Source: Dipteris shenzhenensis (Eukaryota). From it: DNA of 64,000 bases. The notes beneath the pieces were generated by a model. The model was not told the DNA's origin. It saw only the letters and a program-made list of their open reading frames with translations, and did not search any database. How positions within the stretch are numbered: position 1 is the stretch's first letter; each line of letters opens with the position of its first letter. The position numbers and the translations under genes are program-made. Below are positions 20,693 through 64,000 of this stretch, piece by piece. The DNA lies in NCBI GenBank assembly GCA_047967505.1, contig CM106538.1. One strand, written 5' to 3'.

Positions 20693-20742
<50 letters not shown>

Positions 20743-32500: not shown

Positions 32501-32650
32501 ATGACTACTCGATCTCTCCCACCGCGATATGTAGGTCTCCCCCGCCTGGTGACAGGCCACACACTGAGCTGTATGAGTTTCGTAGGTAATGGGTGTAGGG
32601 GTGAAAACCCGCAGGCAGCTGTGCAACCGCATGCCATCCGGAGGCACTAA
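32501..32650 (+). other. Candidate upstream ORF (49 aa)
   Basis: ATG 32501 to TAA 32650: [49 protein letters not shown]. Confidence 0.3.
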
Positions 32651-32876
32651 GCTAGCTGGTGTGGCTTGTACTTCTAGTACTACGGTTTGTAGCTCGCTCT
32701 CTTCTAAAGTCTTAGTGTTTGTATTCGAATTTGACCTTGCCTTTCCGGTTTCACCCTCAGCTACCTCTTGCCAGCTGCATGCCGTTTCATCCCAACCATT
32801 CTGCGAAATATCTGCATGTCGAAGTCAGACTTTGAGCGGAAGATTTACATACATCTGGGCGTATATAGGTTGTAGC

Positions 32877-34541
32877 ATGGACTCCAGAGAGCATGGTCCG
32901 TCCAAATCAGATAGAGATTCTGGGGCAGGAGGTAGTCCAGAGAACAATGTGCCGTTACAGCTAGTGCAGTATCAGAGCGAGGGCAGAAGTACGATCGGAT
33001 ACGCGCGTCCCCAGCAGCATAATTCGCATTTTACTGGAGCTTCGATAGCTCAAGCAATGGCTGCTATGGCTGGTGGCACGGGAATTAGTGCCTCGCAAGT
33101 AGATGCATCACTTGCAATGTCTGCACCAGGTCTAGGGCAAAAGTATTCATCCGAAGGGCAGTTGAGCAGTAGCCTGGGGACTTTATCAGGACAATCGCCG
33201 GCTGCCCAAGCACAATCGCAAGAGTTGGCCATCGCAGGACCCTCATCGGAAGCCGGCCAGCTCGCAGCAAAGAAGCCACCTCCCAAGAGATCCTCTACGA
33301 AAGATCGCCACACTAAGGTAGATGGCCGAGGAAGGCGCATTCGCATGCCGGCAGCTTGTGCCGCTCGAATTTTCCAGCTTACCCGTGAACTTGGACACAA
33401 ATCGGACGGAGAGACGATCGAGTGGCTGCTTCATCACGCAGAGCCTGCAGTAATCGCGGCAACAGGCACCGGTACTATTCCCGCTTCTTTCCAAACATCC
33501 GGTGGCTCTATGCGTTCAACATCGTCAAGCATTTCTGCACCGTTGCACAGGCCCCCTTCCTTCCATGGTGCTCTAGGATTATCAGGGCTCGGCCAAAGGG
33601 ACACATCAGACATGACGGCTGCAAGGTTGGAGCAAGCACGCAGGGCAGAATGGGATGCAGTGGAGGAGAGAGCCATGGAAGCAAACAGGCGAATGGGATT
33701 CAGCATAGGCCAAGGAGACACAGGATTAGGGCAAGATGTCATGTCGGGTTTTCATCACGAGAGCTTGATGGGGGGAGGAACAGACGTTGGAGAGGGGATG
33801 GGAGCCGATTCCTTAGACTCTGGAAACATGAGAAAAAGATTTCGAGGATCTTTGACGCATCTCAAGGAAGAACCTGAAACCACCAGACCCTTGTTTTCGG
33901 TTATGAGGCCCTCCTCTCTTGCTGGTGCGTCCCAAGGCGGAGCTTCCAATCTGATGCCGATGTGGGCAGTGGCTCCTGCACCAGCATTGGCCAGTAACAA
34001 TTCTTTGCCAGGGGCCTTTTGGATGCTTCCCGTTAGTGCAGGTTCTTCCACTCCTGGCGTCGTGGCTGGGCCTTCACATGAGCAGATCTGGGCTTTTCCT
34101 CCAGGGGGTCCGAGTGGAACAATGTACAGAATGGCTGCACCACCTGGCCCTTCAATACATTTGGGATCGTCAGCAGCTGCTGCAACAGCATCAGGAGGAG
34201 CCGGTGGAAGCTCTCCATCTTCGGCGAATTCTATGATGCCTCTCCCTGCATCCATGCTCCCCAGCGCTGTCACGTTTATGCATAGGTTCAATCTTTCCGG
34301 AGGAATGGGTCTGGATCTGCAAGGAGGGCAATATGGGCATATGCCAATTGGATCAATGCTACTTCAACAAGGTTCCCAACAGCTACCAGGAGCTGGATTA
34401 GGTTTGGGAGGAGACCAACAATTAGGCATGCTTGCTGCAGTCAATGCCTATCCGAGTCGTTCTACACAGCAGGATCAGCACTCCATGGGCACAGGTCATC
34501 AGCAGGGAGATAGTGGAGAGGATCCAACGAGTTCTCAATAA
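32877..34541 (+). CDS. TCP: Class I (PCF-type) TCP transcription factor, 554 aa, uninterrupted CDS
   Basis: [62 protein letters not shown] from 33300 is a class I TCP domain. The frame is open from ATG 32589, but MDSREH (32877, context GCATGG) is the likelier start. Confidence 0.95.
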
Positions 34542-42250: not shown

Positions 42251-43519
42251 CAATGTACATGTGCAGATAAAAATCTGGAAATCCTTTAGAATCTTTCCCA
42301 TCAACTACATGAATGCCTGGAAAGGAGGTGGCCATGGCTAATACTCAAGTCAATCTGAGAATAAAACATGGAACCTACTAGCAAATGTTTTAGATGCAAT
42401 ACAAAAAGTAGACATAACAAATGTGCCTCACGCTCGAGAGGCCACTGAGAAATTGAAGCAAAGCAAAGGTGAAGGCAATCTTGGTAAGAAGGTCTAGGGT
42501 CCTCTTGACAGAGACTTTTCCCCACAACGTCCTCTAAACTAGGTGGCACGATGCTTCTTCCCCACTAGAAAGAGCTATTGAGATGCTCGTCAAGTATAAA
42601 GGACTAGGACACCACAAACTACTATAGAAGGAAGTAGAAAATCAGATCAATTGCAGCAAAGCTATTGGAGAAAAGGGTACATTTCCAAATCCAACAGTGG
42701 CCACACTGGGTCCAACATCAGGCCCTATCCTTGTTAGTGTTGTCAAGCCCTATCCTTGTTAGTGCTAATGTTGTGTTTCACCCGAAGCTACATTTCAAGA
42801 GGAAGAAGAGTGACACTATGTGCTTTTCAAGATTGGTGCTTTCATATGTACTCATCGATGGTATATCACAATTGGTGCTATCAAATCTCCCCTTTTTTGG
42901 ATGTTATGGGGCAAAGTAACACTTTTGTAAAAAGAAAAATATTGACGTACTATAATGTAAACCCTCTTTTCATGGAAAAAAAATCAGTGACAATGATTGA
43001 ACTAGAGAAGAGACATAAAATAGTACTTATATGTACAAATTGAGAAATGAAGGTGCACCTTCCTCATTTTCCCAAGTGTGTCACTACTCCCATTTGCATC
43101 CTTGTTTTTGTTGCATTTTTTGGATTGTCCAATCAGTATGAGAATCACCCCTCTATTGACATGGGATGGGAGAAAACCTTCTTAGCTAGCTACGTTTAGC
43201 ACCACTACTTTTAGTTCTATGTAGCTTTATACAATTCAAAGCCGAACCCATATTCTCCTAGAGTCTTACCATCCTTCATATGCATAACTGCTTCTATTTG
43301 TTCCTTTAGTGTCAAAGGGGCATACATAAGGGATGATTCATACTCTTAGAGAGAGTTTTTCCTCTTGGAAGAGCTACAAATATCTTAATCCTTGTTGTCT
43401 CTATGCCAACATGGACTTAGGTAGCATAGAATGTGTGTGTAGAGTAGCGGTAAAGCTCCACTTATACTTGCATAAGACTAAGGAATAATCTCTCTTAGGA
43501 ATCCTCAACATACATCTCC

Positions 43520-43700
43520 AACATGCAAGTCCTACATGCAAATCCTACATGCATATTCTATATGCAAGTTCTACATATGATTCCTACATGTAGTTTGTAC
43601 ATGCAGCTCCTACATGCATGTCCTACATGCAAGTTCTACATATAATTCCTACATACTCCTACATGCAACTTGTAACTCCTACTTGCAAGTTCTACATGTA
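43520..43700. repeat. Minisatellite with a unit of about 14 bp (tcctacatgcaagt)
   Basis: About a dozen degenerate units. Confidence 0.85.
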
Positions 43701-43759
43701 GAGACAGAATGTCTTATAATTCCTACATGCAGAGAGAGAAGCTCTCCAACTTGTACAAA

Positions 43760-44210
43760 TACCCCATAATGGAATGAAGCCCATACTCTTTGGGGCATTG
43801 TGTTGAGTTATACTTTGGTATTCCAAGCAATTGTCTCCACGTGTACATCCTTCCTTGCACTCCACGTCCAAAAGGATGTCCTAATCTTGCAACTCCTCCA
43901 ACCTTGCAACCCATCCTCTCCCTCTCCTCCTCCCTCCTCCTCCTCCCTTCTCCTCCCTCCTCCTCCTCCCTTCTCCACCCTCTCCTCCTCCCTTCTCCAC
44001 CCTCTCCTCCTCCCTTCTCCTCTTACACCTTCTTTCTCTCCCCCTCCTATGCTTCCCCTACACCCTTAGTCCCTCAACCCTTGACCTCCATGATCTACGA
44101 GGGAGACGAGTTCTCTACTCTACCACATGAACCTTGGATCCTCTGTCTGAACCCTGAACCTCTTCTAAACCTTGGAACCTCCTTCTAAACTCTGAACCTC
44201 CATGTACTAA
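43760..44210 (+). mobile_element. Diverged relative of the CCT-rich LTR family
   Basis: aatggaatgaagc..actctttgggg, the CCT tract and ccctcaaccctt..ggagac match 59550-60025. Confidence 0.6.
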
Positions 44211-44480: not shown

Positions 44481-46912
44481 ACTTGCGCCAAATACTGATA
44501 AACTAAAGAAAATTTATGTAGTCCATGCAGCCGAGGGTGAATGATTAGAGGAGATGGAGTTTTCTTAGAAGATTGAAATGCATTAATATGGTTGAGTGAG
44601 CAACTCTTTTTGCATGGACTTAGAGTTCGCAATTGACACATCACTTTATGTGCAGGGCACCACCACCAGCCTAGAGAGTGTGAGACACCTCTTAGAGGTT
44701 TATTTTAGTGCTTTGGAAGCCAAGGTCAACTGGTATAAATTGGTAGTTTTCCTCATAGCATTAGAGAAAGTGCTTCCATAGGGGGTTGCAATCTTGACTT
44801 CAATTGGATACCCTGATGTTAGACCATGCGTTACTTGGACTGGTAGGTGCATTTGGATATTCCAATAGATAAGCAAATAGCCTCGGTACAAGAGATCATG
44901 GAAGGAAGTTTCTTTACAGAAGCTCTCAGCTAGGCTTTCCCTTATAGGTAGAGCAATTTTTGTGAGCCAAATTCTCCACAACAAGGTACATCGCATTGAG
45001 ATGGTACTTCATAGAGGTTGTATTGGACAGATTAGGAGGTTAGTCTGAAACTTTTTTTGGGCAGGTTTAGATGGCCCACACACAACCACAGCAAGGATTT
45101 CTTGACAGATTGTAACATTCCCCCAAGCAGAGGGAGGGCTGAGCGAAGATGATTGTGTGTGTGTACACCTAGCTGCTGGCCTTCATGTCAATTTTCAAAA
45201 ATCTCACTTGTTTCCTTTGCATTCTAAAGATTGGCATAGTCTAGTATGGACAGGGAAAATCATCTCGCCCAATCAGTTGATACGCCATCTTGATTATCAT
45301 CTGGGTTGGTCAATTACTCATCGTCAACAAATTGATTGGGTTCTTGTTAAATTAATGAAAAAGTTAGAATATTGGAAGTGAGTGACTTGGCCTTTGCATG
45401 TCTAGCTCAGAATTGTTCAATCTATTTTACTGGCCTACATTCAATTTTACCTACCATTGATCTTTTTTACCAATGGATACATTACATCCTTTATGTCCAC
45501 CATCATGGAAATTTGTTGTCGTTCAAAGCATGGCAGGAAAAGTTTGCGCTTGCTTCCAGTACAGCGGTTATGTTCACCAAAATTGCATGGGGGCTTGAAT
45601 ATTCTCAACACGTGCACATTCTGGCTCATAAAGGAAAAATGATGCTACCATTTATACATGGTGATCATCCTTGGGCTACAATGATGCACCATTTACTCCT
45701 TCAACTTACTTCTCGTACATTTGGCTATTGGTAGCCCTCTCAGTGGGATTTTCTGTTGGGTAATATTGAAGGCAAGGTCAAAGGCTTCCCTATTGTTACT
45801 CAAATGTTTTTGGATTGGAAACATATTCCCACATTTGGCTTGGCATAGCCAGGATTACTTCTACAGTAAATCTCTGAGAGCGGGAAGCATCCACTAGTTG
45901 AGTTTTTCCTAGCCATTGGCTTTACCAGAGCCCAGACGCTCGTATTTTCTTAATTCAAAAGGAATTTCCTCTGTGGCAGATGCCATTCATGATGATGGCA
46001 CTCTTTTATTCTTCCCTTTGGCTACTGGAAAATATGGTTTGGGAATGCATTATCACCCTCTATGGCAGATTATTACTCGGATGCTTCAGCCATTTCAGCC
46101 AGTACCCCCTTTGGAACTTCAAGATAGCCTTCAGCATTGGACTCTTCTTCTAGTACACTCTCCATTCTTCCTTTGAAGCTGTCTCATATAACACTCTCAT
46201 CTTTATATAAAGTTCTATTGTCTCCACCCTAGGCATCGAATAGGGCTAATCAAATTTGGCCTTTGCATCGTCAAATGGTGGAGAAAAAGATTGAAATAGA
46301 TTTGGCACTTCAAGGTCCCTCTACGACAACAACTTTTTCCATGGCATGCTTTGTTGGAGGTTTCTGTCTGGATAGCTTTTATCATGTAGACGTATTGCTC
46401 TAGCTATTTGCATAGATGTTTAGCTCCAAGGGAATTTGTATCTCATATTTTTTGGCACTACCCCAAGACATGGAGCTTCTTGGGCATCCTTTGGCAGAGA
46501 TTTCCTCAGGCTTCTTTTGGCAAGCTTTTTTGGCTATTTGGGATCTATCCTCGACAGCCAGATTTTGAGTTGTTATTTACCTGGGTTCACTACTGAGCAC
46601 TCTAGAAATATAGAAATTAGAGTCTTTGGTGATAAAGTTTTTTCTACTTTTGTTTTCTTCTATTGTTCTTTGCAGCAATCGCTCTTCGATTGTCTGCAAA
46701 CTCACTACGTAGATCATGATGTATATTTATCCTACACTGAGATTTTCTCTTGGTGTAAGCTTTTGGCTTATCAGACCTTTTGGGTTACCAGTTTTCTGGG
46801 ATAGCTATCTTATAATATAAAGTCTTCAAAGTTTTCACTCTTTAAAAAAAAAGAATGTATATCTTTTCTAATGAATACTACCTTCTTACAAAAAAAAAGA
46901 GCACGCATGCAC

Positions 46913-46950
<38 letters not shown>

Positions 46951-47214
46951 CATATGGGGATGATTCCTTTTTCTTGCCCCAAAACACTAAAAGGGATCTT
47001 TCATGCCTCATGCATGCTTTATCTGTATAAGGTTTGGTTGCGTGTCTGCATGTAAATTTTCAAAAATCTAAAACTTTTGCCTCTCCATGATAAAGTTTGG
47101 CATCATATATTATGGCCGGGGGGCATTGTTTTACCCACACAGCTTGTTAGGCATCTTGGTTACCTTTGGGATAGAGGGTCACTCGTTGTCAGCAAAGGAA
47201 TGGGTTCTTGACAT
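44481..47214 (+). repeat. Copy 2 of the duplicated LINE-mosaic block
   Basis: Colinear with 18353-21019 and retains about 107 bp (44548-44654) that copy 1 lacks. Confidence 0.9.
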
Positions 47215-50200
47215 CGGAGGCCGCTCAAGTGACACTTGCAGACGACTCGTGCTATGCATTGCTCCCACAAGGAGTAGCTCAAAGTGGAGGCTCCATTGGC
47301 ATATCTTCAACATCCCCACAACACGTGAGTCTCCACCGAGACCCACAACCCATAGCACATGCCAGGCTAGCTCAACACCATCCAAGGCTGATCTTCGAGA
47401 AGTGCCAGAGTACTTCAAGAACTACACAAGTGGTAGTGTCCCCCTAGCAATGCCAAGGCCCGTAAGAGAATCTGAAGTGCAAGAAACTGATAATATTTGA
47501 GAGACTTCAATCAATGAGGGACCGGCCAAAACTCACACAATAAACCTCACCCTTGAAGAAGAGGAAGAAAAATTGGTATTCATTGTGGGAAATAGCTTAC
47601 ACAAGAAGATGAAACAAAACTCAAAGCACTCCTAATAGAATACCGACACTACCTAGCATGGTCATACAATGAAATGAAGGGAATTTCACTAGAAGTGGTA
47701 GTACACACGATACCTATTAGGGAAGGTGCCCACCCTAAGATATGTGGACCTTATTGAACAAATCCAAAATATGGCACCATGGTCTATGATAAACTAGAAA
47801 AACTCTTAGATGCCCGATTCATCTATGAGATAGAGCACACTGATTGGGTTTCACCCATCTTTATCGTATCTAAATGCAACAAGAATCTAAGAATATGCGT
47901 TAAATTAAAGAATGTGAATGCTGCCACAATCAGGGATCACTATCCCCTACCCTTAACAGAAACAATGTTGGAAAAGGTGGCTAGATCAGAGATATGCAGC
48001 TTCTTGGATGGCTTTAGTGGCTATAACCAAGTGCAAATTGCTCCTATAGACCAATCAAAAATAGCATTTGCAACAGAATGGGGTATATTTGCCAATAGAG
48101 TCATGCCATTCTGCCTTTGTAATGCCCTAGTCACATTCCAGAGAGTCATGTTTACAGCTTTCAAGTCATTTTTGAATATGTTTCTACAGGTGTTCTTGGA
48201 TGATTTGTGCATCCACTCGATCAAAAAAGACAATTCAAATGTCTTGAAGCAGTTCTAATCAAATGCAGGGAGTATGGCATCTCCCTAAATCCAACAAAAT
48301 GCCAGTTCATGGTCACCAATGGAGTTGTTTTGGGACACATAGTTTCTCAACATGGGATTGCCACACTGTCATGGACAAAATCAAAATCATCATGGAATTG
48401 CCTTCTCCTACAAATTCCAAATGTGTTCAAAGTCTTTATGGGACATGCTAGCTATTATAGACGATTTATCTTGCAGTATGCCATGATAGCTAGACCACTT
48501 TACAAATTATTAGTGGAATTCTTATGGACAAAAGAGTGTGATCAACCTTTGAGCTTTTAAAGTGGTTGCCTAATCACAACACCCATCCTTATATCTCCCA
48601 AGTGGGATATTGATTTTCATGTTCATACTGATGGATCCAAGTATCCAATTGGGAGTGTGCTTTGTCAACTTGGTGAACATAAGAAAGACTACCCATTCTA
48701 CTTTGCCGACTACAACTCAATGATGCAGAGATCAACTATACCATGACAGAAGGAGAAGCCCTGTCAATGGTGTATAGTGTTAAAAAATTTTAACACTATC
48801 TACTGGAAAATGACTTTGTCTTCTATATCGACCATCAAACATTACTTTATCTTGTGAACCATTCGTGTATAATAGGAAGAATAACCAGGTGGCTCCTCTT
48901 GCTTCAAGAATTCAAATTCAAAATAGTGGTTCACAAAGGTGCCCAACACTACATTGCCGATCACATGTCTCATGTCAAGTCGAGAGAAGAAGCCACTGGA
49001 GTAGAAGATGACTTGCCAAATGCCACACTATTTCATATAGATGATGTTCCAGATTGGTGTGTAGATATCATTGGGTACTTAAGGGCAGGAAGACCACCCC
49101 CTAAGATGAAAGCAGTAAATGCCAGAAAACTAATTTTAAAAGCTGCACCCTATCAACTCATTGTAGGACAACTATACAAGATGGGCAAGGACCAGGTTTT
49201 AAGAAGATGTGTAATGCCTCATGAGATCATGCCAATCCTTAGTGAAGTCCATGAAGGCATTGTAGGAGGACACTTCTAAGGGAAAGCCATAGCAATAAAA
49301 ATTCTCGCAGGATACTGGTGGCCAACACTTTGGGCAAATGCCTATGAATATGTCGAAAGCTATGATATATGCCAACGGACTACTAAACCACAACACAAAG
49401 TCTTCAATCCCCTAACAACAGTTGTTGTACAAAAGCCATTTGAAAAATAGGGGATTATTATGTGGGTCCCATCCCATCTAGTAAAGAAGCAAAGGGAGCA
49501 TAGGCATGCTACATCATTGTGGCCACTGATTACTTTACCAAATGGACTGAAGCTAAAGCAATTAGTTGGATAGAGGCATGCATTTTGTCAATGAGGTTAT
49601 CCAAGAACTCTTGTCTAGCTTTATGGTAATCCATAAAAAAAGCACACCTTACTAACTTCAAGGGAATGGAGGGGCCAAATCCACCAACAAAATATTATGC
49701 ATTATCCTCACCAAGGTAGTAGAACCACAGTGTTCTGATTGCGCAGAGAAACTAAATGCAGCCTTATGGGCATACCGAACCGTACTCAAGGTCAGTACAG
49801 GGAACACACCTTTTCAATTGGTGTACAGCCTTGAAGCTATGGTCCCATTCAAATTTGTAACACCAAGTCTATACATAGCAGTATAGGAATGCGTGGGAGA
49901 TCATGCATCCCTGAAAGAAAGACTCTATCAATTGGAGAAGCTGCCTACCATGCCATGACAATAGAAAAACGCAAAAGAAAGGCATGGTTTGATAGAAACC
50001 TTAAAGCCAAAGACATTAAGGAAGGTGACCTAGTCTTATTATATAAATGCAAGGGAAAACTCAAGTAGCTAGGTCAAGGACCCTATCGAGCAAGAAAAAT
50101 GAATCCCATTGGAGCTGTGCTGCTAGAAACATTGGATGGATTCCAATTCAACCGAACCATAAACGGAAGCTGACTGAAGTGCTACTACATCAACACGCAA

Positions 50201-51950
50201 GCCATCCCCAGCAAAAATGAAGATTTGGGAACACTATCTTCTTTAGTTAGTATTAGGTTGTATCATGAGCACTCACTTTCATATGTATGTCTTCGCACAT
50301 ATAGGTAGCATCAATCGATTTCAACCTATGCTTGAGTCCTAGCTACCCTATGAAATCCCAGCAACTACAAAAAAAAGCATATAGTTAGTCCCTACCTAGT
50401 TATGCCTAGACATATAGTCGATTGCATGAATAATTATGCCGCACACTTTCATTCCACACTCTCAAAGCATGTGTAAAAATAAGATCTCTCATAATACACA
50501 CACATGTGTCGTACCTGCATACCAACTAATCTAATGATCAATGGTTCACCATGTGAACATGGATGCAAGTTTAGAAACAATGCCACCACTAAAGAGGATG
50601 CGAAGAAAGAGCCCAACGCCTCAGCCACCACGAGATATCCTTTAGAGTTCGTAGCCATCCACCTCCTCTCAACCAAGGTGACCATAGGCATTTGTGGTTC
50701 AAAGCGATAGCTCTTAGGATGATTATGTGCATGACATGAAAATGCAAGAAGTACAAATTCCACCCAAGTCACGCCACCAACCTACACGACCATTTACGAG
50801 GCTTAATCCTTGGAGCTTGTGTGGCCACCTACATAGACTTATGCTCTTTCCAACACAACATCTTTCTTAGAGCAAAGGGGTCTTGTTAGTTTGTATGAGA
50901 GCCTAAAATCCTTGGAGGATAGTCCTACAATGACCACATACATCAGGGACCTTCTCCATTCTTGCCACTCTAGCGATGCACAGGTTGGCAAGTACAGCAC
51001 CATCACTGTACATCAGAGCCAACTCAACATTATCCTCGATAGTACACTAATTCAAAGGGCCTTCTCACTCCCAACTCAAGGTGCAAAATACCATACAAGG
51101 TTGCCAATGCTAAATTTCTCGAAATATAGCCTCTCCTTGCCAAGGGTACCAAGTTCCATAGGGACGGGATATTACTTCGCACCAGCATTAACCCCTGACT
51201 CAAGTAAGTAGCACAATTCCTATCCACAATCTTGGGGGTTACTACTAAACCCAAGTGATTGACTTACCATTGGAACAACCCCCAACAAGTACTACGGAAT
51301 CATCAGGATGGCTACACGAACACCAATCATATCAGCAGTATCGCCAATCCTCATCACCGTACAATTGAAGACTCTAGACAGTTACATGCCAAAGTAGTTA
51401 GTCTAAAAAGCACTAAAGGAAGTGGCCGGAGGACAAGTCAACTAGGCAAAGCTGTTGACTTTGTACATTCAAGACTAGGTGGAGAAGTTGAGGATAGACA
51501 TGCAAAAGGTGTGTCAAGACTCAAGTGGAAGTGCACCCATGCCTTCTCATACAAAGGGTCAAAGAGTTGCCAAGATAGACACCAACCAAAGCAACCAATC
51601 TACTAGACAAATTCTTTGTAGATTCATCATAAGGGTGAGGATTCTGAGATGATGATAGACGGACATGTGCCACAAGGCCTGGTAGTCGAGACCTACAACC
51701 ATGATGGTGGTTGGTGGGGATGTTAGGATAAGGATGGCTAAGGAGATTCGAGCACAAACACAAGTGGCTGAAGGAATCCAAGAAGAAGTCATGGCCAAAA
51801 TGCTATAAAAGGGCATGCCGTCTTTCATGACAAGGGTTGTTGGGTCACATAGGGGATAGACTATATATAACTAGATGGAGGCCGATGTAAAGGTCACCAA
51901 TTCGGTGTTGCACATGTGCAGTTAGGTCAGTCAATGCCCTCAATTGTAAA
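47215..51950 (+). mobile_element. Athila-like (non-chromovirus) Ty3/gypsy fragment: RT, RNase H, integrase, spacer, accessory ORF
   Basis: WVSPIFIV, RDHYPLP, FLDGFSGYNQ, FLDDL; GRITRWLLLLQEF; HEGIVGGHF; ALWAYRT. No additional RNase H was seen. Confidence 0.88.
50559..51900 (+). pseudogene. N-terminal part of the accessory ORF downstream of integrase
   Basis: MPPLKRMRRK..; FLEQRGLVSLYESLKS..KYSTITVHQSQLNIILDSTLIQRAFSLP, homologous to 57421-57890 (-). Confidence 0.6.
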
Positions 51951-52379
51951 GATTTCTAACCCCATTTTGGAAGGCAACCGATAAGCATAACTTGGTTCCA
52001 TTTTTAGTGCATGTAGAATAGAAGCCCAATGCCATAAGAATGATGCAAGTCTCTATTTCTCTCTCCCTCTCACATATGATACCTAGCAATCATGATACCT
52101 GTCCATGAATCTAGAACACAAAAAAAAAAATGGTGCGATTTTTTGTTTCACAACTTTATGTTGATGAATGGGAGATAGAGTCCCTTGGTGAAGAGAGAAA
52201 GAAGCCCCCTCATGAAGGGAAGAAGAAGCCCAATCTTGAGCCCTTAATGAAGGGAATAAGCCCAAGTTTAAGCTCCCATTAGCTTGCGGACTTAATGAAG
52301 GGTTGTCAAAATAGAAAGGAAAGTCACAAATCTGATGGACAATACTTTCTAAGATGTACATATTTAATTATTAATGGAA

Positions 52380-53340
52380 CAATTTTACCAGAGTTCTTGT
52401 AGGTTTAGCAATGAGAACACTAAATTCCTTTATACAATTGTTTTAGGATCAACTACAACCATCGTGTTATTGTAAAATATAATTGGTTTAGGACTGACTA
52501 TAATAACCAGCATGGTGGTTGTACAACTTAAGTGATTCAAGATTAATTGCAACGAGTGTGGTGGTTTTATAGGATTTAGGAGGATTTAAGAGCTTTTTGT
52601 ACCACATTTTAGCAACATTTAAGAACTTTTTTTACACTTTTTAGCACTGTTTAATTGATTTTTAGCATTTTTTAAGCACTATTTGACCACTTTTTAGCAC
52701 TTTTTGAGAATTATTTAACCATAATAAGTTTAAGATTTACTGGATAAATAGAATTCATTTTCCTTGGTTTAGGATTAATTGTAGCCAACAATTTATTTTC
52801 CTCATTTTATGATTAATTGCAACCAGCATGGTGGTTTTAGGAACTAGCACAATTGTTGTACAACTTAACTTATTCAGGATTAACTGTAATTAGCATGGTG
52901 GTTTAACAAGATAAGTGGTTTAGGATTATCTACAACCACTTTAGCATTAATTGGATAAGTAGAATTCATTTTCCTTGGTTTATGATGAACTATAACTAGT
53001 GCGGTAGGTTTAGGATTAAGTACAACCAACACAACTAGTGTATAAGTTAAGTGATTCAGGATTAACTATAAGCAACATAGTGACTTTACAAGATAAGTGG
53101 TTTAGGATTATCTGCAATTATGATAAGTTTAGGATTTATTCAATAAGTGGAATACATTTTCCTTGGTTCAAGATTTATTATAACTGGTGTGGTTGAGTCT
53201 AATGATAAACTATTTGGCATCATTTTATTGTGGATTGTAAACAAACTAATTACACAATGAGAATACATTTTCTTGTATTGTCTTAATCCTCTATGCCAAG
53301 AGAATAGACAATGAGAATGCATTTCCCTATACTATCTTAG
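52380..53340. repeat. AT-rich degenerate tandem repeats
   Basis: Recurring tttaggattaactacaacc, agcatggtggtt, ttttagcac and gaattcattttccttggttt. Confidence 0.75.
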
Positions 53341-53607
53341 TCCTCTACTCTAAGACATTTGATGTTGTGCTCATGTGTGTCTAAATCCATTTTGAAGACA
53401 TTTTGCCCTTCTTTTGTTCAGGCATAGCTTATAGTTGAAACTTAATAGCTCTTACAAATGAGAGTACACATACGTCTGTAGAACTTTTGTAATAGTCTAT
53501 AATTGTGGCCTTTCTTGGATGTTTTTGGTACTAGATACTGTTGTCATTGTTTTACCCAAGTGCAGGTTCCGAGGGTGTTGGTCACCTACAGTCGTGTCAT
53601 CACTCAT

Positions 53608-54831
53608 TGTAGCATAGGTGTTCACAAGTGTAGCATAGGTCCTCGGGTCATGTTCTGGTGAGAGGTGTAGGATAAAGCATGGAAAGCAGATCTCATGCAC
53701 GCATGAATGAGGAAGAGGGCTTGATTATAAACGATTAATGGAGGCTCTCGCCTCCATGGGAGCTCAAGGGTTTAGAAGGGGGTTTCAGGGTTCGAAAGGG
53801 GGACAAGGTTGAGAGAACTAACTAGGAGTTCTAGGGTTCAGAGGGGGTTGCAGGGTTTAGGAGGAGTCCAAGGTTGAGGAGTAGAGAGTTAGTCTCCTTC
53901 GTGGATTCGAGGGGTAAGGGTTGAGAAGGAGGGACAAGGAAGGAGGAGGAAGAGAGAAGAGAGTGGAGGAGGGAGGGAGGAGGAGGAGGAGGAGGAGGAG
54001 GAGGGAGGAGGGGGAGGGAGTAAGAGAAAGGACGAGGAAGGAGGAGGGGGAGGGAGTAAGAGGAGGGAGGAGGAGGAGGAGGAGGAGGAGGGAGGAAGGA
54101 GGAAGGAGGAGGGAGGAAGGAGGAGGAGGGAGGAGGAGGAGGGAGGAGGGAGGAAGGAGGAGATAAGAGGAGGAGGAGGAGGAGGAGGAGGAGGAGGGAG
54201 GAGGAGGAGGAGGAGAAGGAAGGAGGAGGAGGAGGGGGGAGGAGGGAGGAGGAGGAGGAGGAGAAGGAAGGAGGAGGAGGAGGGGGGAGGAGGAGATGGA
54301 GGAGAAGCATGAGGAAGGAGGAGGAGGAGGGAGTACAAGGGTAGAGAGTGCAAGGGTAAGGGCATGCTAGAACACGATAGTGTAAGAGAGCATGGATGCA
54401 ATGGAGATCAATTGCATGAACACAATAGTGAGCTTGAACACTGAACCCCAAAGATTGGGAGCTTCATTCCATTGAGAGATATTTATACATGTTGGTCTCT
54501 ACACAATCCGTAGGTACTTCCGTGGTGGGACCTCTTTTGTAGGAGACCTTTTGGACAGGAGTCCCTCCACTTTTAGGGGGGACCTTTTGGGTCTCTACAC
54601 AAAGTGGGGGGACTTTTTGGGTCTCCACAAAGTGGGGGGACCTTTTTGGTCTCTACACAAAGTGGAGGGACCTCCGAAAGTGTAGGCTTTTAGTATTTCT
54701 CTCTCTAGATTAAGTATTTCTCTCTCTCGATCCTAATTTTGCAAGTATGATTGGATCTTTTCTAGAGAGGATTTTGGCTATCCTCATCCTTTAAGATTTA
54801 TCATACCATCTTTCAAGCTCAAGATATTACA
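53608..54831 (-). mobile_element. LTR of the CCT-rich family, interrupting the accessory ORF
   Basis: Minus strand starts TGTAATATCTTGAGC, identical to the 59193 start. Near-identical to 59193-60027. The 3' end (..GCTACA) is tentative. Confidence 0.75.
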
Positions 54832-57800
54832 CAAACACCGTAGATTGCTTGCTCACTTTTTAAGAAGCTAGTGTCAACCATTTCTTCAAACAAACACACA
54901 TAAAGCCCTTCAAGAGATATGGCCCTTTGAAAGAGGCGACTTGTTGTTTGAGCATCTATCTATTGATTTGGATTGAAGCTGAGGTTGGGCAAATGGTCGT
55001 CAATGGTGAGGGACACCTCCAGGATGACTGCTAAGGCTTCACTGTATCTTGCACTTTCCTTGAGTGTTTTGTCATAACTGCTTTGCATAATTGATGCATG
55101 TCTGTCCAAGGCTCTGATGAGTGTTTCCTGGCTTGTCCATTTGATTTTAGAGTTTCTATTGATTAACAGTCAATTGCAAGGAGCATCTGCATTATCTAGA
55201 TCATGATGATTGGCATCCCACTGGTAGCGACGGGGCACCGCATCAAATGTGGGATGCATGTGAAAGGAAGATGGAGCCTACATGTATTCAAGGAGGTACT
55301 TTTCATTGAGTAGCTTTAGTCTACGCCAAGTAGGCTGTTGTGGCTCCAATTTCATGCTGATGTTTGAAGTGATTTGTGCTTGGCGGCTACTCATTGAAAT
55401 TCCGGAGAGATCCCATCCTCCTCTTGACTGCATGTTTGGGTATTGCCTCCAAAAATCACCAATGGGATTACCAAGCATGGGAATCCTATCTGTATCTAAT
55501 TGCAACTCCCTTATGGGTGTGCAAATTGGATTATCCAATTCTTGAAGCTCATTGATGGAGTCATTGATGGTGTCTTCCATTGAAAACTCAAGGGAGATTG
55601 GAGAAACATGTGGTCTTGGGGGAGAGGAAGAGGTTATAGGGGAAAAGCTTGAGGTCAAAGCAAGTAGTGAATTCGAGAACTTAGAAGTAGGGATGCTAGT
55701 GGAAAGTGGAGGGAGAGCAGGACTAATTGATTTAGCAACTTAATAATCCTCAAGGGATGGATTGTCAAGTGTTGGAAAAAAGTTAGGTGTAACTGGATGA
55801 TAGGAGTTAGATTCTTGGATTCGGCAATAGTGTTGAGAGGCATGGGCAAAGAGGCATGGTAAGGAATATGGATTAGCATGGATTTCTGGAAAGGTATGGA
55901 GGATAGTACTGGAGTTAGGTAGGGATGTGAGTAGATTAGAATAGAGAGTGGCAAGATAAGGCAGATTAGATTGAAGTTAGACCACATATTTCTCTAGTAG
56001 ATCCATGTCACTTCTAGTAGGCATTGACAGCTTTAATTTTGGATTCTTCTAGGAGTTGTATCCCATGGAAGTTGCTGGTGATTGTTGCAGTAAAGGTAGG
56101 AGTCTAGCTACTACTCGAAGAGGGGGGCTTTCCATCAAGCATTCATATAGTAGTATTGCATCAGCCTTTAACCATATGAGATTTGCATGCACTAAGAGAT
56201 AGAACACATTCTTCTCATCTTCATCGATGTGCTGGCATAGATCTCGGAGAGTCTTTGTGCTTACTGGTCTAGTCCAATCAAGACTAGTAGATACTGCATG
56301 TAACATTTTGATTTGCAAGTGTTTCCAGAGTATACGTATTCTTCCTTCAAGGTGATCCTCTTGCTGGAGGACTACAACAAGTTCTTGGTATAATGTAGTG
56401 ATGCCTTGTAGCAAAAGATCTTATGCTGACCCCTCCACATCGTCATCGACTTGACCCAATAGTTGAATTTCCAACTTGGAAATTATTGCTTTTTGATTTT
56501 GCCACTCCATGCACTTATCTTTATACTTACCTAATGTGGAGGTGTATGCAAGCTATAGACTATTGAATTTTGAGCTGATTTTGGATCCCTTGGAAATTGA
56601 TCATTAAGGACATGGAGTTGGAGTATCTCTTGTTCTTGAGCATCCAGTTCTACTTTGGTGTGCACAAGTATCTCTCTTGATGCCATGCATTCCTTCTCTA
56701 GTGCTTGAATTTGACGTTCACCCTCTTTGAGGCTATTCTACAACTCATTGTTTGTGTCTAATGTGGCATGGAGCTGATCCTCTTTAAGTAGTAGTATTTC
56801 ATTTAATTGCACCAAGTCCTTCTTGATATCATCACAAGTGGCTTGCATATGGGAGAGGGATAACTTGACCTTTTCCTTTTGGTTTAAGGCATCAGATAGC
56901 TATAGGTGTTTATCTTGGAGAGAAACCGTGGCTTGTAGGGCATCCTTTCTACTTTCTACTAGAGCATTTTTTGTAAGGAGGTGTTGCTGCATTTGTTCTA
57001 CCATGCTTTCCTTGAGCTTCATAATTTCAGTCTCGGCACCTTGCAATTTGGATTGGAATGATGGGAGCATCTGTCTTTCCATTTCTATTTCATGCTCATC
57101 CGATGCCATGGTAGCAAATAATTGAGACCATTGTTGTAACTGTTGGCTGTGATGTTGTATGATCTGGAATGTGCTATGGCCTTGCTTATATTAGACATAC
57201 AGTTGACTCCCATGTGCCCATGTGGAATGTTGATCTATTTCTTAAATAGTAGTCTATTATATGGTGCCACTAGAGACATTTGGGGGTTGTGAGTTGAGAG
57301 GGGTGTAGAGTCATCCTCTTGCTCTATTGTAAACCCAATTATTATGGCCAATAGATGGGTAATGTAGCTTTTGCCATTATGGGTAGTTGGTTAGCAGCAA
57401 GGATATGTGTTGAGACCAGTCTAAGCCCAGTCTTGTAGTTTTGCTCTACCAAGGAGTGTAAGAGTTTTTACTGACATATAGTTTTTTCTCACTCCTGAAT
57501 GATTGAAAATGTCAGCCAAAAACTTAGTTGCTTCTTTGCATATGGGGTCCAGAATCATATCATGGCGTATTCCCCCACTTTGTGACTTTGTGTGAGGAGG
57601 GGATAAATCTTGAATTTCAGAGAATCTTGCATCCAAATGTTTCTTTGGATATTCTTCTTGTGCCTTTGGAAGTGAGAAAGCCTCTTGCATAGTGGATCTA
57701 CTGAGGTAGATCTGTAAGGGCTTTTCTTTATATGTTATTGTGCCATACTTATCTTTCTCCAACTCTCTGCTTTTATATGATGTTATGAATTGACAAATGT

Positions 57801-58263
57801 ATTCTATCATAGCAAGTGTTGGTAAGAAGGATTTTAGCTTCTAAAAAAGACTACCTAGTCCCTTTGACTGCAAGAAGTTATAAGCATTGGGTGACATGGC
57901 GAACGTTGAGACTCATGGCCATACAAGATGTATTGTTCCATCTGTTGCTAGCTCTTTGTTGGTCTGGTCCTCAAGGTGTTCTACACCTGCATCCTTCATG
58001 GTCAATTGCTCTGGCTCAATTTCTCCTGCCTCTAGTATCCCTTGGTTCTGTGGCATTTCTTCTTGGCATGTTGCATTTATTTGCACATCAATATCACTAT
58101 CCAAAACCACTAGCTGTGGTCATTTTGGTGCTGACCTCTGGGTTGGTTATTCTAGACCGTGTCCTTCTTCAAGTTGGTGATTTAAGGAGGGCTGTTGAGG
58201 TTGAGGCTTGGGCCGTTTGGCATGGTGTCACTTTGTTGATGGCGTTGTAGGCCTTTTTCCCAT
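54832..58263 (-). pseudogene. Accessory ORF of about 3.4 kb (basic N-terminus, PMD/Transposase_32-like block, coiled coil, unknown C-terminal domain)
   Basis: ATG 58263 MGKRPTTPSTK*HHAKRPK. ORF pieces at 57421-57810, 56900-57109, 56049-56414 and 55278-55658 lie in series on one strand. Confidence 0.6.
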
Positions 58264-59055
58264 CTTATTGGACTGTCTTCACTCTAGCATTGCAGACATG
58301 AATTAGGTCCCAGTTTGACAGTGCCAATATAGTACCATGTGCTAAGAGTGCATGTTTCTTTTGTGAGTGGCTAATGCATTTTACTCTTATTGTGATGAGG
58401 GTGTCATGTGTGTGGATCAAAACAAGTATCTCTTGGGGCTTTTATTTGTGCAATTTATTCATGGTGCTCGAAATGTGTAGGTGCACTATGCATGACTAGT
58501 GAGGTGGGCATTCCTCCTATATGCTTAATTTGCTAAGGGAATCATAGGGCAGCTAGGACTCAGTCATCACCTCTGAGCCCTAGGTTGAAATAGATTGAAA
58601 CTACCTATATGTGCAAAGGCGTACATATGCTATAGTGAGTGTTCGTGATACAGTCTACTCCTAACTATGGAAGGCTTGGGGCCCCCAAATCTTCAATATT
58701 GTCGAGGATGGCTTGCATGTTGATGTAGTAGCACTTTAGTTGGCTCCGTTTATTGTTGTTGTGAACTGGACTCCATCCAATGTTTCTAGCAGCACAGCTC
58801 TGATGGGATTCATTTTTTTGACTCTCTAAGGTCCTTGACCTAGAAATTTGAGCTTGCCCTTATGGACTTTGGTATTGTACAGTAGAAACCTTCCTTGATG
58901 TCTTTGTCTTTGTCTTTGAGGTTTCTATCAAACGATGCCTTCCTTCTCCGTTTTTCTATTGTCATGGCATGGTAGGCAACTAATTTGGTCTCTGTATACT
59001 TCTCTAATTGGTAGATTATTTCTTTCAGTGATGCATGATCTCCCATATGTTCTTT
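54832..59055 (-). mobile_element. 3' part of a second Athila-like element (integrase tail, spacer, long accessory ORF)
   Basis: 58690-59055 is homologous to 49885-50230 (GDHASLKE..YQLEK), and the spacer also matches. Confidence 0.8.
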
Positions 59056-59192
59056 GTTGGTGGATTCGGCTTGTTACATAGTACCAAACCCAAACATAAG
59101 GTTGAGGAAGCATTTTAGTATCATTGGGGAACAATATAAGAGAAGTGAGATGCAGTAATTGGATGTGTGTAGAGTAGCATCAAAGCTCCGCT

Positions 59193-62100
59193 TGTAATAT
59201 CTTGAGCCTAAAAGATGGTATGATAAAATACTAAAGGATGAGGATAGCCAAAATCCTCTCTAGAAAAGATCCAGTCATACTTGCAAAATCAAGATCTAGA
59301 GAGAGAAATACTAAATCTAGAGAGAGAAATACTAAAAGCCTACACTTTCGGAGGTCCCTCCACTTTGTGTAGAGACCCAAAAAGTCCCCCCACTTTGTGT
59401 AGAGAGCCAAAAGGTCCCCCCCAAAAGTGGAGGGACTCCTATCCAAAAGGTCTCCTACAAAAGAGGTCCCACCCCAAAAGGTCTCCTACAAAAGAGGTCC
59501 CACCACGGAGGTACCTACGGATTGTGTAGAGACCAGGTATGAATATCTCTCAATGGAATGAAGCTCCCACTCTTTGGGGTTCAGTGTTCAAGCTCACTAT
59601 TGTGTTCATGCGATTAATCTCCATTGCGTCCATGCTCTCTTACACTATCGTGTTCTAGCATGCCCTTACCCTTGCACTCTCTACCCTTGTACTTCCTCCT
59701 CCTCCTCCTTCCTCCCTCCTCCTCCTCCTCCTCCCTCATCCTTCTCCTCCATCTCCTCCTCCCCCTCCTCCTCCTCCTCCTCCTTCCTCCCTCCTCCCTC
59801 CTCCTCTCACCTCCTTCCTCCTCCTTCCTCCCTCCTTCCTGCTCCTCCTCCTCCCTCCTCTTACTCCCTCCTCCTCCTCCTTCCTCTTACTTCCTCCCCC
59901 TCCTCCTTCCTCCTCCTCCCTCCTCCTCCTCCTCCTCCCTCCCTCCTCCTCCACTCTCTTCTCTCTTCCTCCTTCTTCCTTGTCCCTTCTCCTCAACCCT
60001 TACCCCTCAAATCTGTGAAGGAGACTAGCATCTTAAGGAACAGACTAAAACCACCAGAAGTGGCTCAGCCCCCACACTTATGGTGCCCCATTTGCAATGA
60101 TACATGGCATGATGTACATACTTGTTTCTACAATATGAGGGTAGCACAACCCCGACCCCAACAATACCAACAGCCGTCACAAATCCCAGTGTACAGACAA
60201 CCGGGACTGGCACCTAATGCACAAGTGCCACGTCTTAACCCACTCCCAATGAGAACACAAGTGCCTCAACTAATGAGAAATCCCAATCCTCCGCAATATC
60301 CATGGGCTCCCAATCTTGCTCCAGTAGTTTCAGTGCAATAACTCCAACCTGAAGAGCTAGAACCTCACTATGAGTATGAAATAGAATACCCTATGTACTA
60401 CATGAATGATGCTGAAGGACTCATCCCAGTGTATGCAAATCAAGTAATACCCACCACATATCAAACACCCATCAAGTGTTTTGGTTGTGGAGAAAACCAC
60501 TGCATAGCAAAATGCCCACACAAGGGTAACCCCATTTCATTCCAACCTGTGTGCAGGGAATGCAGAGTTGGGCATGCTTGCATGGATTGCCCACTAAGAA
60601 CAAAGCCTCAACCAACCACGGAAGTAAAACCTGAAGTACCCCTGGGGATGATAAGTGTGGAAAATCACAGTGTGGCAACACGAATTATGGCATCACAGCC
60701 AAGCAGTCTTGATCATAACATGACAACAAAAAGAAGCGACATGGCAAAAACACCTTTTCGCTCAAAAAGCAAAGAGCCCTCTAGCAAAATAAGCCATGCC
60801 AATCCCACAACATAGAGAGACTATGCCTAGCACATCCATGAAAAGTGCCACCCAAGGAGCCAAGGAAGCATACCCCAGTGCTGAAACTGAAAAGACGCAC
60901 TACCAAGCCTTGAAGCAATGGGTTCAATAGGAACAAGAAAATTTTGAGGCAGAAAGGATGGCAACAGTAGAGGTCAAAGCACCATCAGCACCCAACATTG
61001 ACACAGTGATTGATCCCAACAACTTCCAAGAGGTAATAGAGCAACATGCAAAACATCCCCAATTGGATGGCACTACACTAGCAAGCTTGATAAGCTGCCC
61101 CGTCACAATGCCAATTGGGACCTTACTAAGAAATTGCCCTACAATGTGGGAAAGTTTCAAGGGATGGATCGGATCTTCACAATACTTCCCCCCACCTGAA
61201 GAAGAGGAAAAGGTAATTTCAGTAAAATTCGGTGCTAGGGATGACATAAAACATGTAACCATCCCGCTGGAGTATAAAGCCTATGGTCAATACCCGGCAA
61301 TAGTGGACGGTGGAGCCAGAGTAAACATTTTGGCAAGAGAGCTATATGAAGAATGGGGCCTGCCTCCAATGCAAGTGGCCACATTTAACATCTGTCTAGC
61401 TGACCACACGAAAATGAAGCCATTGGGTATTGTTGACAATGTGTCAACAATAATTGTTGGAGTAAGATTCAAGCTCCAATTTACTATCTTGGATCTTCCC
61501 AAGGGCGCCACAACATACCAGATATTGTTGGGAAGACCATGGCTTCAGGAAGCATCGGTACTCCATGATTGGGGCACTGATAGGATCACTATCCAAAATA
61601 GAGAAACCGCTGTCAAGATAAATCTGAGAATAGGGGAAATCAAATGCACTATTCCTAGAAATGTTGAAGACACTTCTTCCACTACCGCCACCAGTCATGC
61701 ATCCCCAGTACCTACCAATGAACTAAAGCCCATAGAAGGAGATACACAAAGTGACATCAATAATTGGATACAGACATTGGCTACAGTAGATAATTGTAAA
61801 ACAACACATCTAATATTGCCAAATGTGGATGCCCAAATGATGCAACTAGAAGCACCAATCTGGGATGATGAATCAGAAGTAGTGGAAATGCCAGTCTTCA
61901 TGACAAGCATCGAATGGGACAGTGACCCTAAAAAGTCCATAATAGAAGGCTACGGTGTTGACATAGAGTGGGATCTCAAAATAGAAGCTGATAATGCATC
62001 CTTGGAAGGCCAAGTATTTGACAATGACTTGGCAATCCTATAGGCACTCATGGCCATTTAATACCCCAAGATCGACCCTCCAGCACAATCCAATAGCAAC

Positions 62101-64000
62101 CGGAGAAGGAGGGTGTACAGTGCCAAAAGGCCAAGATAGAGCACTTCAACAAATTTGAAAGAATGCAGACCAGAGTGGTAGAATCATACTTAACTAAGCC
62201 CATAAAAGCACCCGAGTCCCCAAATTTTAAATGGGATCCTAAAGGGCTTGAAGGTGTTTGTATGGCCGAAGAACCACTCCTTGGGAGTGTGACTCCTATT
62301 GAAAATCCATCACTGGTATCACAAAGCAAAAAGCTTAGAAAGTTCAAACCCAATGTGAGAATGAAGAGTGAAAAGGTGAATAGTAACAAAAAAGAAGAAC
62401 AAGGGAACACATGTGAATTGGACCAAATATATTCCAGTGGAGCTAGCAACCAAGCAAGCACCTCAAAGTGCCATGAAGGCCTAAGGGAAGTTCTCTATTA
62501 GTTCAAAAACTACACTAGAGGAGAAGAAACAATAGCAATGCCTAGGCCAATCAGGGAATCAGAGCTCAAAGAAACAAATCGGTGAACAGCTCACTCTAGA
62601 AGAAGAAAATGAATTGAAAGCATTGCTTATGGAATATAGAGATTGCATGGCTTGGTCCTACAAAGAAATGAAAGGGATTTCCCCAGAAGTTGTAGTACAT
62701 ACCATACCAATAAGGGAAGGATCCAAACCAAAGGTATGTGGACCTTACAGGACAAATCCCAAGTATGGCACCCATGTCTATGAAGAACTATAAAAATTAC
62801 TGGAGGCTGGTTTCATTTATGAGATCAAAAATACTGATTGGGTGTCACCAATTGTGATTGTTCCTAAGAAAAACAAGAAGCTCAGAATATGTGTGAATCT
62901 CAAGAACGTCAATGCGACAACAATCAGAGATCATTATCCCCTACCATTGACTAAAACAGTTTTAGAAAGGGTAGCGGGATTTGAAGTGTATAGCTTCTTG
63001 GATGGGTTCAGCAGGTACAACCAAGTACAAATTGCACCTCAAGATCAGGCAAAGACAGTGTTTGCCATAGAATGGGAAATTTTTGCATACAGAGTCATGC
63101 CATTTGGCTTATGCAATGCCCCATCTACTTTTCAAAGGGTAATGTACACCACCTTCAAGGAATTTCTCAACAAGTTCCTACAAGTCTTCCTCGACGACTT
63201 GTGTGTACACTCAGGAAAAAAAGATCACTTGAAATGCCTTGAAGAAGTCCTCAAAAAATGCAGGGAGTATGGAATCTCTTTGAATCCTCTAAAATGCCAA
63301 TTCTTGGTCACACATGGAGTTGTCTTGGGACACATAGTCTCTCGACATGGGATTGCAACTGACATGGACAAAATAAAGATCATCATGGAACTCCCCCCCC
63401 CCCCCGCTAAATGCCAAGGGAATTCAAGTATTCATGGGACATGCCGGATACTATAGAAGATTCATAGTGAGGTATGCCATGATTGCAAGGCCCCTATGCA
63501 AGCTCCTAGTCAGCTTCATCTGGACAAACGAATGCAAACAAGCATTCAAAACCCTCAAGTGGAGATTGATCACAACCCCGGTTCTAATGGCACCAAATTG
63601 GGACATAGACTTTCATGTACATATTGATGGTTCCAATTATGCAATAGGGAGTGTGTTATGTCAACCTGGCAAACACAACAAAGACTACCCAGTATACTTT
63701 GCAAGCAGATAGCTAAATGATGCGGAGGTGAATTACACCACAACAGAAAGAGAAGCCTTGGTAATGATCTACAACGTGAAGAAATTTTGACACTATCTAT
63801 TGGCTACTGACTTTATCTTCTACACAAATCATCAAGCCTTATTATATCTTGTGAATTGGCCATGTACCACAGGCCAGATCACTCGATGGCTTCTACTGCT
63901 ACAAGAATTCAATTTCAAGATCGTGGTGAAAAAAGGAGCTCAACATTTCATTTCCGATCACATTACACGATTGAGGACAGGAGAAGAACCGGAAGGAATA
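59193..64000 (+). mobile_element. Athila-like Ty3/gypsy running off the window: partial LTR fused to gag 3' end, protease, RT, RNase H
   Basis: LTR 59193-60027; zinc knuckles; IVDGGARVN protease; LLGRPWL; RT FLDDL; RNase H FHVHIDGSNYAIGSVL. Several stops and frameshifts. Confidence 0.9.

Follow-up and report, generated by a model that had tools for sequence, protein, structure and literature searches.

A decayed sense-strand reading frame of about 1,100 codons downstream of integrase in a Ty3/gypsy element of the fern Dipteris shenzhenensis

The window analyzed here is a stretch of 64,000 nucleotides from contig CM106538.1 of the fern Dipteris shenzhenensis (assembly GCA_047967505.1). It harbors the remains of three Ty3/gypsy elements, A, B, and C, which were resolved by self-comparison of the window (blastn), translation, Pfam, and tblastn with related polyproteins. 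Element B, on the minus strand, carries a long extra open reading frame (ORF) between the tail of its integrase and a block resembling a long terminal repeat (LTR). This extra ORF, which runs in the sense direction of the element, was once a real coding region of ~1,100 codons, and a chance frame is unlikely; the copy in the window is dead. The features of the locus, including reverse transcriptase (RT) and ribonuclease H (RNase H) of the neighboring elements, are as follows.

53824..54831, minus strand: LTR-like block, taken as the 3′ LTR of element B; tandem repeats, conserved core, (TCC)n tract; ends uncertain
54822..58223, minus strand: extra ORF of element B (eORF-3′F type), ~1,134 codons, 14 stops, at least 2-3 frameshifts
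58119-57088, minus strand: piece P0004 of the extra ORF, 344 codons, 5 stops
57190-56534, minus strand: piece P0002 of the extra ORF, 219 codons, 2 stops
56552-54822, minus strand: piece P0003 of the extra ORF, 577 codons, 7 stops
58224..58667, minus strand: spacer of element B from the pol stop to the probable ATG at which the extra ORF starts; alignment with element A is limited to its first ~125 nt
58668..59073, minus strand: C-terminal tail of the element B integrase, translated as ..LKCYYINMQAILDN..*; the remaining pol is missing from ~59075 upward
59193..60027, plus strand: LTR-like block of element C (same family as element B), with CCHC knuckles, protease, and RT immediately after it (60100-64000)
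47591..50305, plus strand: pol of element A (RT, RNase H, integrase; Pfam RT_RNaseH and Integrase_H2C2, tblastn of the database protein P0008), directly upstream of its extra ORF
50559..51606, plus strand: remnant of the extra ORF in element A, with a conserved block at 50807-51163

Element A, on the plus strand, begins with an LTR-like block (~43434-44200), which is followed by a foreign 2.6-kb repeat, by RT, RNase H, and integrase, and then by the diverged homologue of the extra ORF. What is left of element B is, in its own order, the integrase tail (59073-58668), the ~445-nt spacer, the extra ORF, and the LTR-like block (54831-53824), whereas element C, again on the plus strand, runs from its LTR-like block through CCHC knuckles, protease, RT, and RNase H to the window end. 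The integrase end of element B is recognizable in two comparisons: positions 59045-58542 are 75.7% identical to 49894-50353 of element A (blastn), and residues 980-1027 of P0008 match 58885-58742 (tblastn). On the other side, the ~1-kb block downstream of the extra ORF also precedes gag-pol of elements C and A; in element B it is 85.7% identical to 59193-59991 on the plus strand, within element C, and is also similar to 43746-44183 of element A. Because the extra ORF lies in the sense direction between the integrase tail and this block, it is an eORF-3′F in the terms of Neumann et al. (2019; PMC6317226): it exceeds 250 codons and lies outside and downstream of the polyprotein in forward orientation, if only in decayed form, with 14 stops and 2-3 frameshifts. 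The integrase tail and the LTR-like block thus bear out the proposal of the initial annotation that an accessory sense ORF follows integrase inside Ty3/gypsy LTR elements.

Two other assignments of the extra ORF were rejected. It might have been a 5′ ORF with the LTR hidden in the spacer; the spacer, however, is single-copy in the window, and the block after the ORF is present three times. It might also have been the missing capsid of the element, but related fern gag models (P0037) retain the capsid end ahead of the zinc knuckles, and none of the ORF pieces is similar to them. In element C itself, the LTR-like block runs at ~60027 straight into the CCHC zinc knuckles (~60100 and ~60500) with no capsid region or primer-binding site (PBS) between them; the capsid region was probably lost there through an internal deletion.

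The LTR-like blocks of A, B, and C are alike in layout, with tandem repeats, a conserved core of ~170 bp, a CT-rich tract, and AACCCT-like repeats. Long ORFs rich in 'PPPSSS' at 53831-54463 (minus), 59562-60341 (plus), and 43778-44188 (plus) are artefacts of the (TCC)n-rich tract, in which several frames are open. Past ..CTCCCA at the far end of the element B block lies a palindromic TGGAGGCGAGAGCCTCCA (53740-53775, minus), a candidate PBS or self-priming hairpin. The ~30 nt to the left of 59193 in element C resemble the sequence to the left of the element A block (43434-43466). The 2.6-kb repeat, which has no Pfam match, occurs twice on the plus strand (18423-21019 and 44654-47214, 88% identity), and one copy lies inside element A between the LTR-like block and RT.

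A long frame at 54832..58263, broken by stops and frameshifts, had been read from the sequence beforehand. Six-frame translation, with read-through and X at stops, recovered it at 58223-54822 on the minus strand of the window, which is the sense strand of element B, as a decayed frame of ~1,134 codons. Its coding signal is spread over three frames, with 14 in-frame stops in ~1,140 codons. In 1000 shuffles of each piece, the mean numbers of stops were 21, 13, and 31 for P0004, P0002, and P0003, respectively, and the minima were 10, 4, and 15, as compared with 5, 2, and 7 in the chosen frames; the shuffle expectation for the whole extra ORF is ~66 stops, and the other five frames contain 9-51 stops per segment. 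From 54731 to 59294, Tandem Repeats Finder (TRF) detected no tandem array, and low complexity is therefore not the cause of the openness of the frame. Together with the depletion of stops in one frame per segment, this indicates a true former coding region, and the same results set the frame apart from the tandem-repeat and low-complexity artefacts against which eORF-3′Fs are screened. The pieces are separated by frameshifts near 57190-57088 (P0004/P0002) and 56552-56534 (P0002/P0003), and at least one further frameshift lies in the N-terminal 100 nt, after the likely ATG at 58223. A TAG at 54962-54960 may be an alternative true stop. P0004 contains FLQSKGLGSLF..MIEYICQFITSY..KYGTITY..LSRSTMQEAFSLP, that is, every motif that had been quoted for the interval.

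Opposite the N-terminal part of the extra ORF, where decay is greatest, the plus strand has an antisense hydrophobic ORF of 145 codons (57813-58250), which lacks a Pfam match and probably arose by chance. Nor is there support for a Retand-like antisense Tr28 ORF, since none of the antisense ORFs of at least 80-90 amino acids (aa) in the extra-ORF regions of elements A and B matches Pfam.

Conceptual translation of the extra ORF gives the following parts, in the order of the protein.

57424..57936, minus strand: N-terminal block, P0004 residues 62-232, ~170 residues, of which only residues 62-182 are conserved with element A
56591..57115, minus strand: coiled coil, P0002 residues 26-200, ~175 residues of phase-coherent, unbroken heptads
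56052..56420, minus strand: predicted helical stretch, P0003 residues 45-167, 123 aa free of stops; AlphaFold2 secondary structure only, with a predicted local distance difference test (pLDDT) <50
55533..55739, minus strand: S/P/T-rich linker, P0003 residues 272-340, S+P+T 45%
54822..55532, minus strand: C-terminal region, P0003 residues 341-577, ~240 residues

The long coiled coil and the S/P-rich linker that the initial annotation had described are both present. In a Fourier test of hydrophobicity over P0002 residues 26-200, peaks appear at periods of 3.50 (z 6.1) and 2.33 (z 5.0) and none at 3.6. A crude count of hydrophobic a/d positions did not distinguish P0002 from shuffles, but the Fourier test did separate them. 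Complex prediction with two copies of a 53-aa stop-free piece of the coiled coil returned a score of 0.02 and a mark of 0.32, which amounts to no verdict and is not evidence either way. Two further parts stood only partly. Support for a K/R-rich N-terminus is weak: both elements show a short basic patch (RRTRSR in B and KRMRRK in A), which sits in the most decayed part and gives way to an acidic stretch (D+E 25%). The C-terminal region does contain tryptophan, five in 236 residues, but shows no evidence of the fold that the word domain implies. No segment of the extra ORF reaches the transmembrane cut of a 19-residue Kyte-Doolittle mean of 1.6, the best value being 1.49 in this crude scan of a decayed copy; by this criterion, the earlier statement that the protein is not envelope (env)-like agrees with the data.

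The homologue in element A matches the extra ORF of element B over 121 aa at 36% identity (tblastn; E 1e-13 with the window as target and 6e-15 with the region), and the two are collinear at the DNA level. A diverged giant homologue had been proposed at 50559-51900; ~120 residues at the collinear position hold up, but homology is confined to 50807-51163. The coding signal in element A covers only ~50750-51650, about 1 kb, and none is seen beyond ~51650. The position and orientation of the extra ORF relative to integrase recur in two diverged element families. Between these families, the pol proteins are 68-81% identical, whereas the extra ORF retains 36% identity in one block and is undetectable elsewhere; judged from these identities, it evolves far faster than pol. 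Such rapid divergence fits the reports on ORFs of this type (PMC6317226; PMC1142308; PMC13547354). Accessory proteins of transposable elements have a higher ratio of nonsynonymous to synonymous substitutions (PMC13547354), and the env-like proteins of the Athila lineage share little sequence similarity with one another, only those of Calypso and Cyclops-2 being recognizably alike at 29% identity (PMC1142308). The extra ORF has accumulated 1.2 stops per 100 codons and 2-3 frameshifts, as compared with 9-11 stops in ~860 aligned codons and at least five frame changes in the pol of element A. Since it is decayed no more than this neighboring dead pol, the comparison suggests that the frame was probably open when element B inserted.

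The order RT-RNase H-integrase in the window elements is that of Ty3/gypsy. Pfam finds in them only RVT_1, RT_RNaseH(_2), Integrase_H2C2, and protease, with neither an extra RNase H nor a chromodomain, and RNase H runs straight into integrase (tblastn). When the RT of element C was used as query, the closest named sequences among the best 120 of 871 relatives at E<=1e-20 were gene models of the fern Adiantum nelumboides (42-64% identity), with Pinus and Marchantia models next and angiosperm models near 42% after them. The Pfam accessions of the same 120 relatives comprise RT, RNase H-like, integrase, gag, protease, and a few stray domains; accessions for ATHILA ORF-1, a chromodomain, or an extra RNase H (PF03078, PF00385, PF00075, PF13456) were not seen among them. 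By sequence, the elements are thus classified as non-chromovirus Ty3/gypsy elements without an extra RNase H whose closest pol relatives in the databases are fern gene models.

The initial annotation had gone further and called them Athila-like, which was not borne out. The lack of an extra RNase H and of a chromodomain is shared with Athila, but all pieces of both copies are free of Pfam matches to PF03078, PF20167, PF10536, and PF04195 (ATHILA ORF-1, Transposase_32, plant mobile domain (PMD), and Transposase_28, respectively) even at E<=10, including the three families with which a comparison had been suggested, and the ATHILA PBS is absent nearby. This PBS, TGGCGCCGTTGCC, which is complementary to tRNA-Asp/Asn, is given for ATHILA in the ATHILAfinder preprint and for 72% plus 12% of Athila elements in supplementary file 5 of PMC6317226. 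With up to two mismatches, its sole match in the window lies at 2260, far from the elements, whose copies have lost sequence by truncation or deletion where the PBS would be expected. The ATHILA ORF-1/Transposase_32 domain is found in the 3′ ORF of just 16% of Athila elements (PMC6317226). Athila membership of the elements is therefore possible but unproven.

Searches with the extra ORF are in accord with the earlier remark that its domains are not recognizable, as nothing emerged from Pfam, representative proteins, or PDB sequences. In Pfam, it yields only sub-threshold noise (HTH_56 at E 0.05, and at E 0.07 for the N-terminal block, and families of coiled-coil type at E 0.02-0.5), and P0004 and P0003 have no match among PDB sequences at E<=1. 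The protein library is not blind to this group of elements, because RT relatives at ~60% identity were found there. Rfam reported nothing over 50000-60500, and a tRNA scan of the whole window found none. Three of the Adiantum nelumboides gene models, P0014, P0010, and P0100, consist of RT-RNase H fused to non-pol tails, and their RTs are 57, 58, and 58% identical to that of element C, respectively (P0100 over 65% of the query). The tail of P0014, when judged by eye, is in order globular, K/E-rich, coiled-coil-looking, and S/P-rich, and the tails of P0010 and P0100 share parts with it. This order of parts resembles that of the extra ORF, but the models are automatic ones that skip integrase, and the link of their tails to the 3′ region of an element is putative. 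P0008, the polyprotein of a relative, has an aspartic-protease-like LLDSGADANIM motif past its integrase (residues ~1090-1180), on which Pfam is silent; related elements may here carry an extra post-integrase domain of another kind.

With these observations, the extra ORF is probably a pseudogenized, lineage-specific eORF-3′F, placed in the sense direction after pol and ahead of the 3′ LTR of a non-chromovirus Ty3/gypsy element, which encoded a soluble, modular coiled-coil accessory protein. The product would have begun with a short basic patch, an acidic stretch, and a globular N-terminal domain, followed by the long coiled coil, the helical region, the S/P-rich linker, and the C-terminal region. 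It would oligomerize through the coiled coil and might serve the life cycle of the element as an adaptor that links products of the element (particles, RNA, or cDNA) to host factors, as has been proposed for the Athila-type 3′ ORF, and not as an envelope. For its expression, an RNA that is subgenomic or spliced would be needed, or else translation would have to reinitiate past the pol stop.

Several points weigh against this interpretation. The only long copy of the extra ORF in the 64-kb window is broken, and a protein of 1,100 codons is documented in one family only, as element A keeps just ~1 kb of signal. The LTR-like block has neither clean TG..CA ends nor a polypurine tract next to it, and it is bounded differently in the separate copies, the B/C similarity beginning at TGTAATATC and the A/C similarity ~30 nt earlier; at the three blocks no recognizable PBS, polypurine tract, target-site duplication, or clean end could be fixed that would certify a 3′ LTR after the extra ORF. 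P0004 (344 aa) has no phmmer match in 1.84 billion representative proteins, and P0003 (577 aa) none in the 'longer' or 'near' length classes of two word-indexed protein searches; P0002 was searched in neither library. Comparison of the tails of P0014, P0010, and P0008 with the window and the ORF pieces by BLAST and hhalign gave no significant similarity beyond integrase. AlphaFold2 models of the N-terminal 344 aa, with the single homologue as alignment, and of the C-terminal 577 aa have pLDDT values of 31.6 and 33.6, respectively, and are both unusable, so that no fold backs any function. As for the oligomer and adaptor roles, we infer them from the layout and from the analogy with Athila.

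One of the closest known systems is the 3′ sense ORF of Athila (PF03078/PF20167; Arabidopsis ATHILA and sunflower Athila 14), which lies in the sense direction between pol and the 3′ LTR of a non-chromovirus element without an extra RNase H. For the Athila domain of Arabidopsis, predictions are that it oligomerizes via extended coiled coils and makes many contacts with host proteins, notably those of nuclear trafficking (PMC13547354), and the 3′ ORF(+) of sunflower Athila, with a basic patch and no transmembrane-grade segment like the extra ORF, is predicted to be nuclear (PMC11728184). In the account of the ATHILAfinder preprint, the Athila ORF has no assigned function. The extra ORF differs in the missing match to PF03078/PF20167, in the absence of a tRNA-Asp/Asn PBS nearby, and in the fern gene models as relatives of its pol. 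It is also more than twice as long, ~1,100 aa versus 487 aa in sunflower. A nuclear, anti-silencing, or targeting role, as had been suggested for the protein, would be speculation from the short basic patch. In Tat/Ogre elements, the PMD-coiled-coil (PMD-CC) ORFs (Ustyantsev et al., 2015; PMC4408406) combine a globular domain with a following coiled coil outside gag-pol, and the extra ORF has such a coiled coil, but not a match to PF10536, and its elements are devoid of the extra RNase H that Tat carries. Those ORFs are antisense at the 3′ side or sense at the 5′ side (PMC4408406), while the extra ORF is sense at the 3′ side.

In the principal alternative, the N-terminal block would be a highly diverged ATHILA ORF-1, Transposase_32, or plant mobile domain, and the product would belong to the Athila type or to the Tat PMD-CC type and form no family of its own. 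We take the motif G-T-I-T..(I/L)..AFSLP of the N-terminal block to resemble motifs of these families. The succession of a globular domain and a coiled coil, as in Tat PMD-CC (PMC4408406) and in the Athila domain (PMC13547354), would agree with such an origin, and so would the sense 3′ position and basic patch shared with the sunflower Athila 14 ORF(+), which matches PF20167 (PMC11728184); in addition, families of this kind change fast (PMC1142308; PMC6317226). However, hmmscan found none of the four Pfam families in either copy, the 1.84 billion representatives contain no match, the ATHILA PBS is absent near the elements, the extra RNase H needed for Tat is not present, and Tat PMD-CC ORFs, as described in PMC4408406, are not in sense orientation at the 3′ side. 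We regard a diverged known domain as rather unlikely. A more novel interpretation, tentative and short of an even chance, is an undescribed family of ~1,100-aa soluble coiled-coil accessory proteins in non-chromovirus Ty3/gypsy elements of ferns or their relatives; in that family the ~120-aa block would be a new domain unrelated to PMD, Transposase_32, and ATHILA ORF-1, and the protein might be an oligomeric adaptor that ties particles or cDNA to the nuclear or silencing machinery of the host.

It is very doubtful that the region is foreign, that is, a transduced host gene or a nested mobile-element insertion that merely happens to be located after integrase. LTR elements are known to capture genes (PMC7264820), and the long C-terminal part is without a second copy in the window. 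On the other hand, the N-terminal block occupies the same collinear place in a second diverged family, no protein search returned a homologue among host genes or transposons, and neither terminal repeats nor insertion boundaries are seen from integrase to the LTR-like block.

Most improbable of all is a gene for an env-like membrane glycoprotein, as proposed for Athila, Calypso, and Bagy-2, because the sense position between pol and the 3′ LTR and the long coiled coil, which retroviral envelope proteins also possess (PMC1142308), are opposed by the lack of any 19-residue segment at the transmembrane cut (best 1.49, although a decayed copy could have lost a hydrophobic segment) and by an acidic part after the start that is unlike a signal peptide. 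The env-like ORFs of Calypso, Cyclops-2, and Bagy-2 do share position, orientation, and very quick divergence with the extra ORF (PMC1142308), but were so named for their predicted transmembrane domains, of which the extra ORF shows none.

A sense extra ORF after pol is a textbook feature of plant elements of the Athila/Tat type (PMC7264820; PMC6317226; PMC4408406). Extra ORFs of at least 250 codons were reported in 3,372 Ty3/gypsy elements and fall into 314 similarity groups, of which just 21.4% have a known domain (PMC6317226). The pseudogenized eORF-3′F of element B is thus real but ordinary for its class, and a new sequence group without matches is the common case. What is unusual here is its size of ~1,100 codons and the fern host group. 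No description of extra ORFs from ferns was found among the titles and abstracts returned by literature searches on them, and the text of the main survey (PMC6317226) is without ferns, although its large supplementary tables might hold related elements. No other part of plant LTR retrotransposons is understood as poorly as the extra ORFs, with hundreds of unrelated groups to which the cited literature, as far as its text goes, assigns no tested function. If two diverged families have retained a large coiled-coil protein in one and the same position, it would lend itself to studies of the way in which such elements handle host factors. As the copy is dead and the class of feature well known, its value lies mainly in an annotation note and in pointing toward intact copies.

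The remaining features of the window include a transcription factor with a TCP domain (Pfam TCP, E 7e-30), encoded by an intronless ORF of 651 codons at 32586-34541 (plus), which is apparently the only host gene recognized in the window and by itself marks the host as a plant. An element of the long interspersed nuclear element (LINE) type, with endonuclease, RT, and zf-RVT, lies at 3573-7578 (plus); its 3′ part is partially duplicated, in direct and in inverted orientation, at 8071-9625 and 12250-13545, and a CCHC ORF is located near it at 2697-3092. An RT fragment of an unrelated Ty3/gypsy element at 15849-16787 (plus; RVT_1, E 1e-33) is ~29-30% identical to the fern-type RTs, and a tandem duplication with a unit of ~550 bp and 99% identity occupies 22925-24579.

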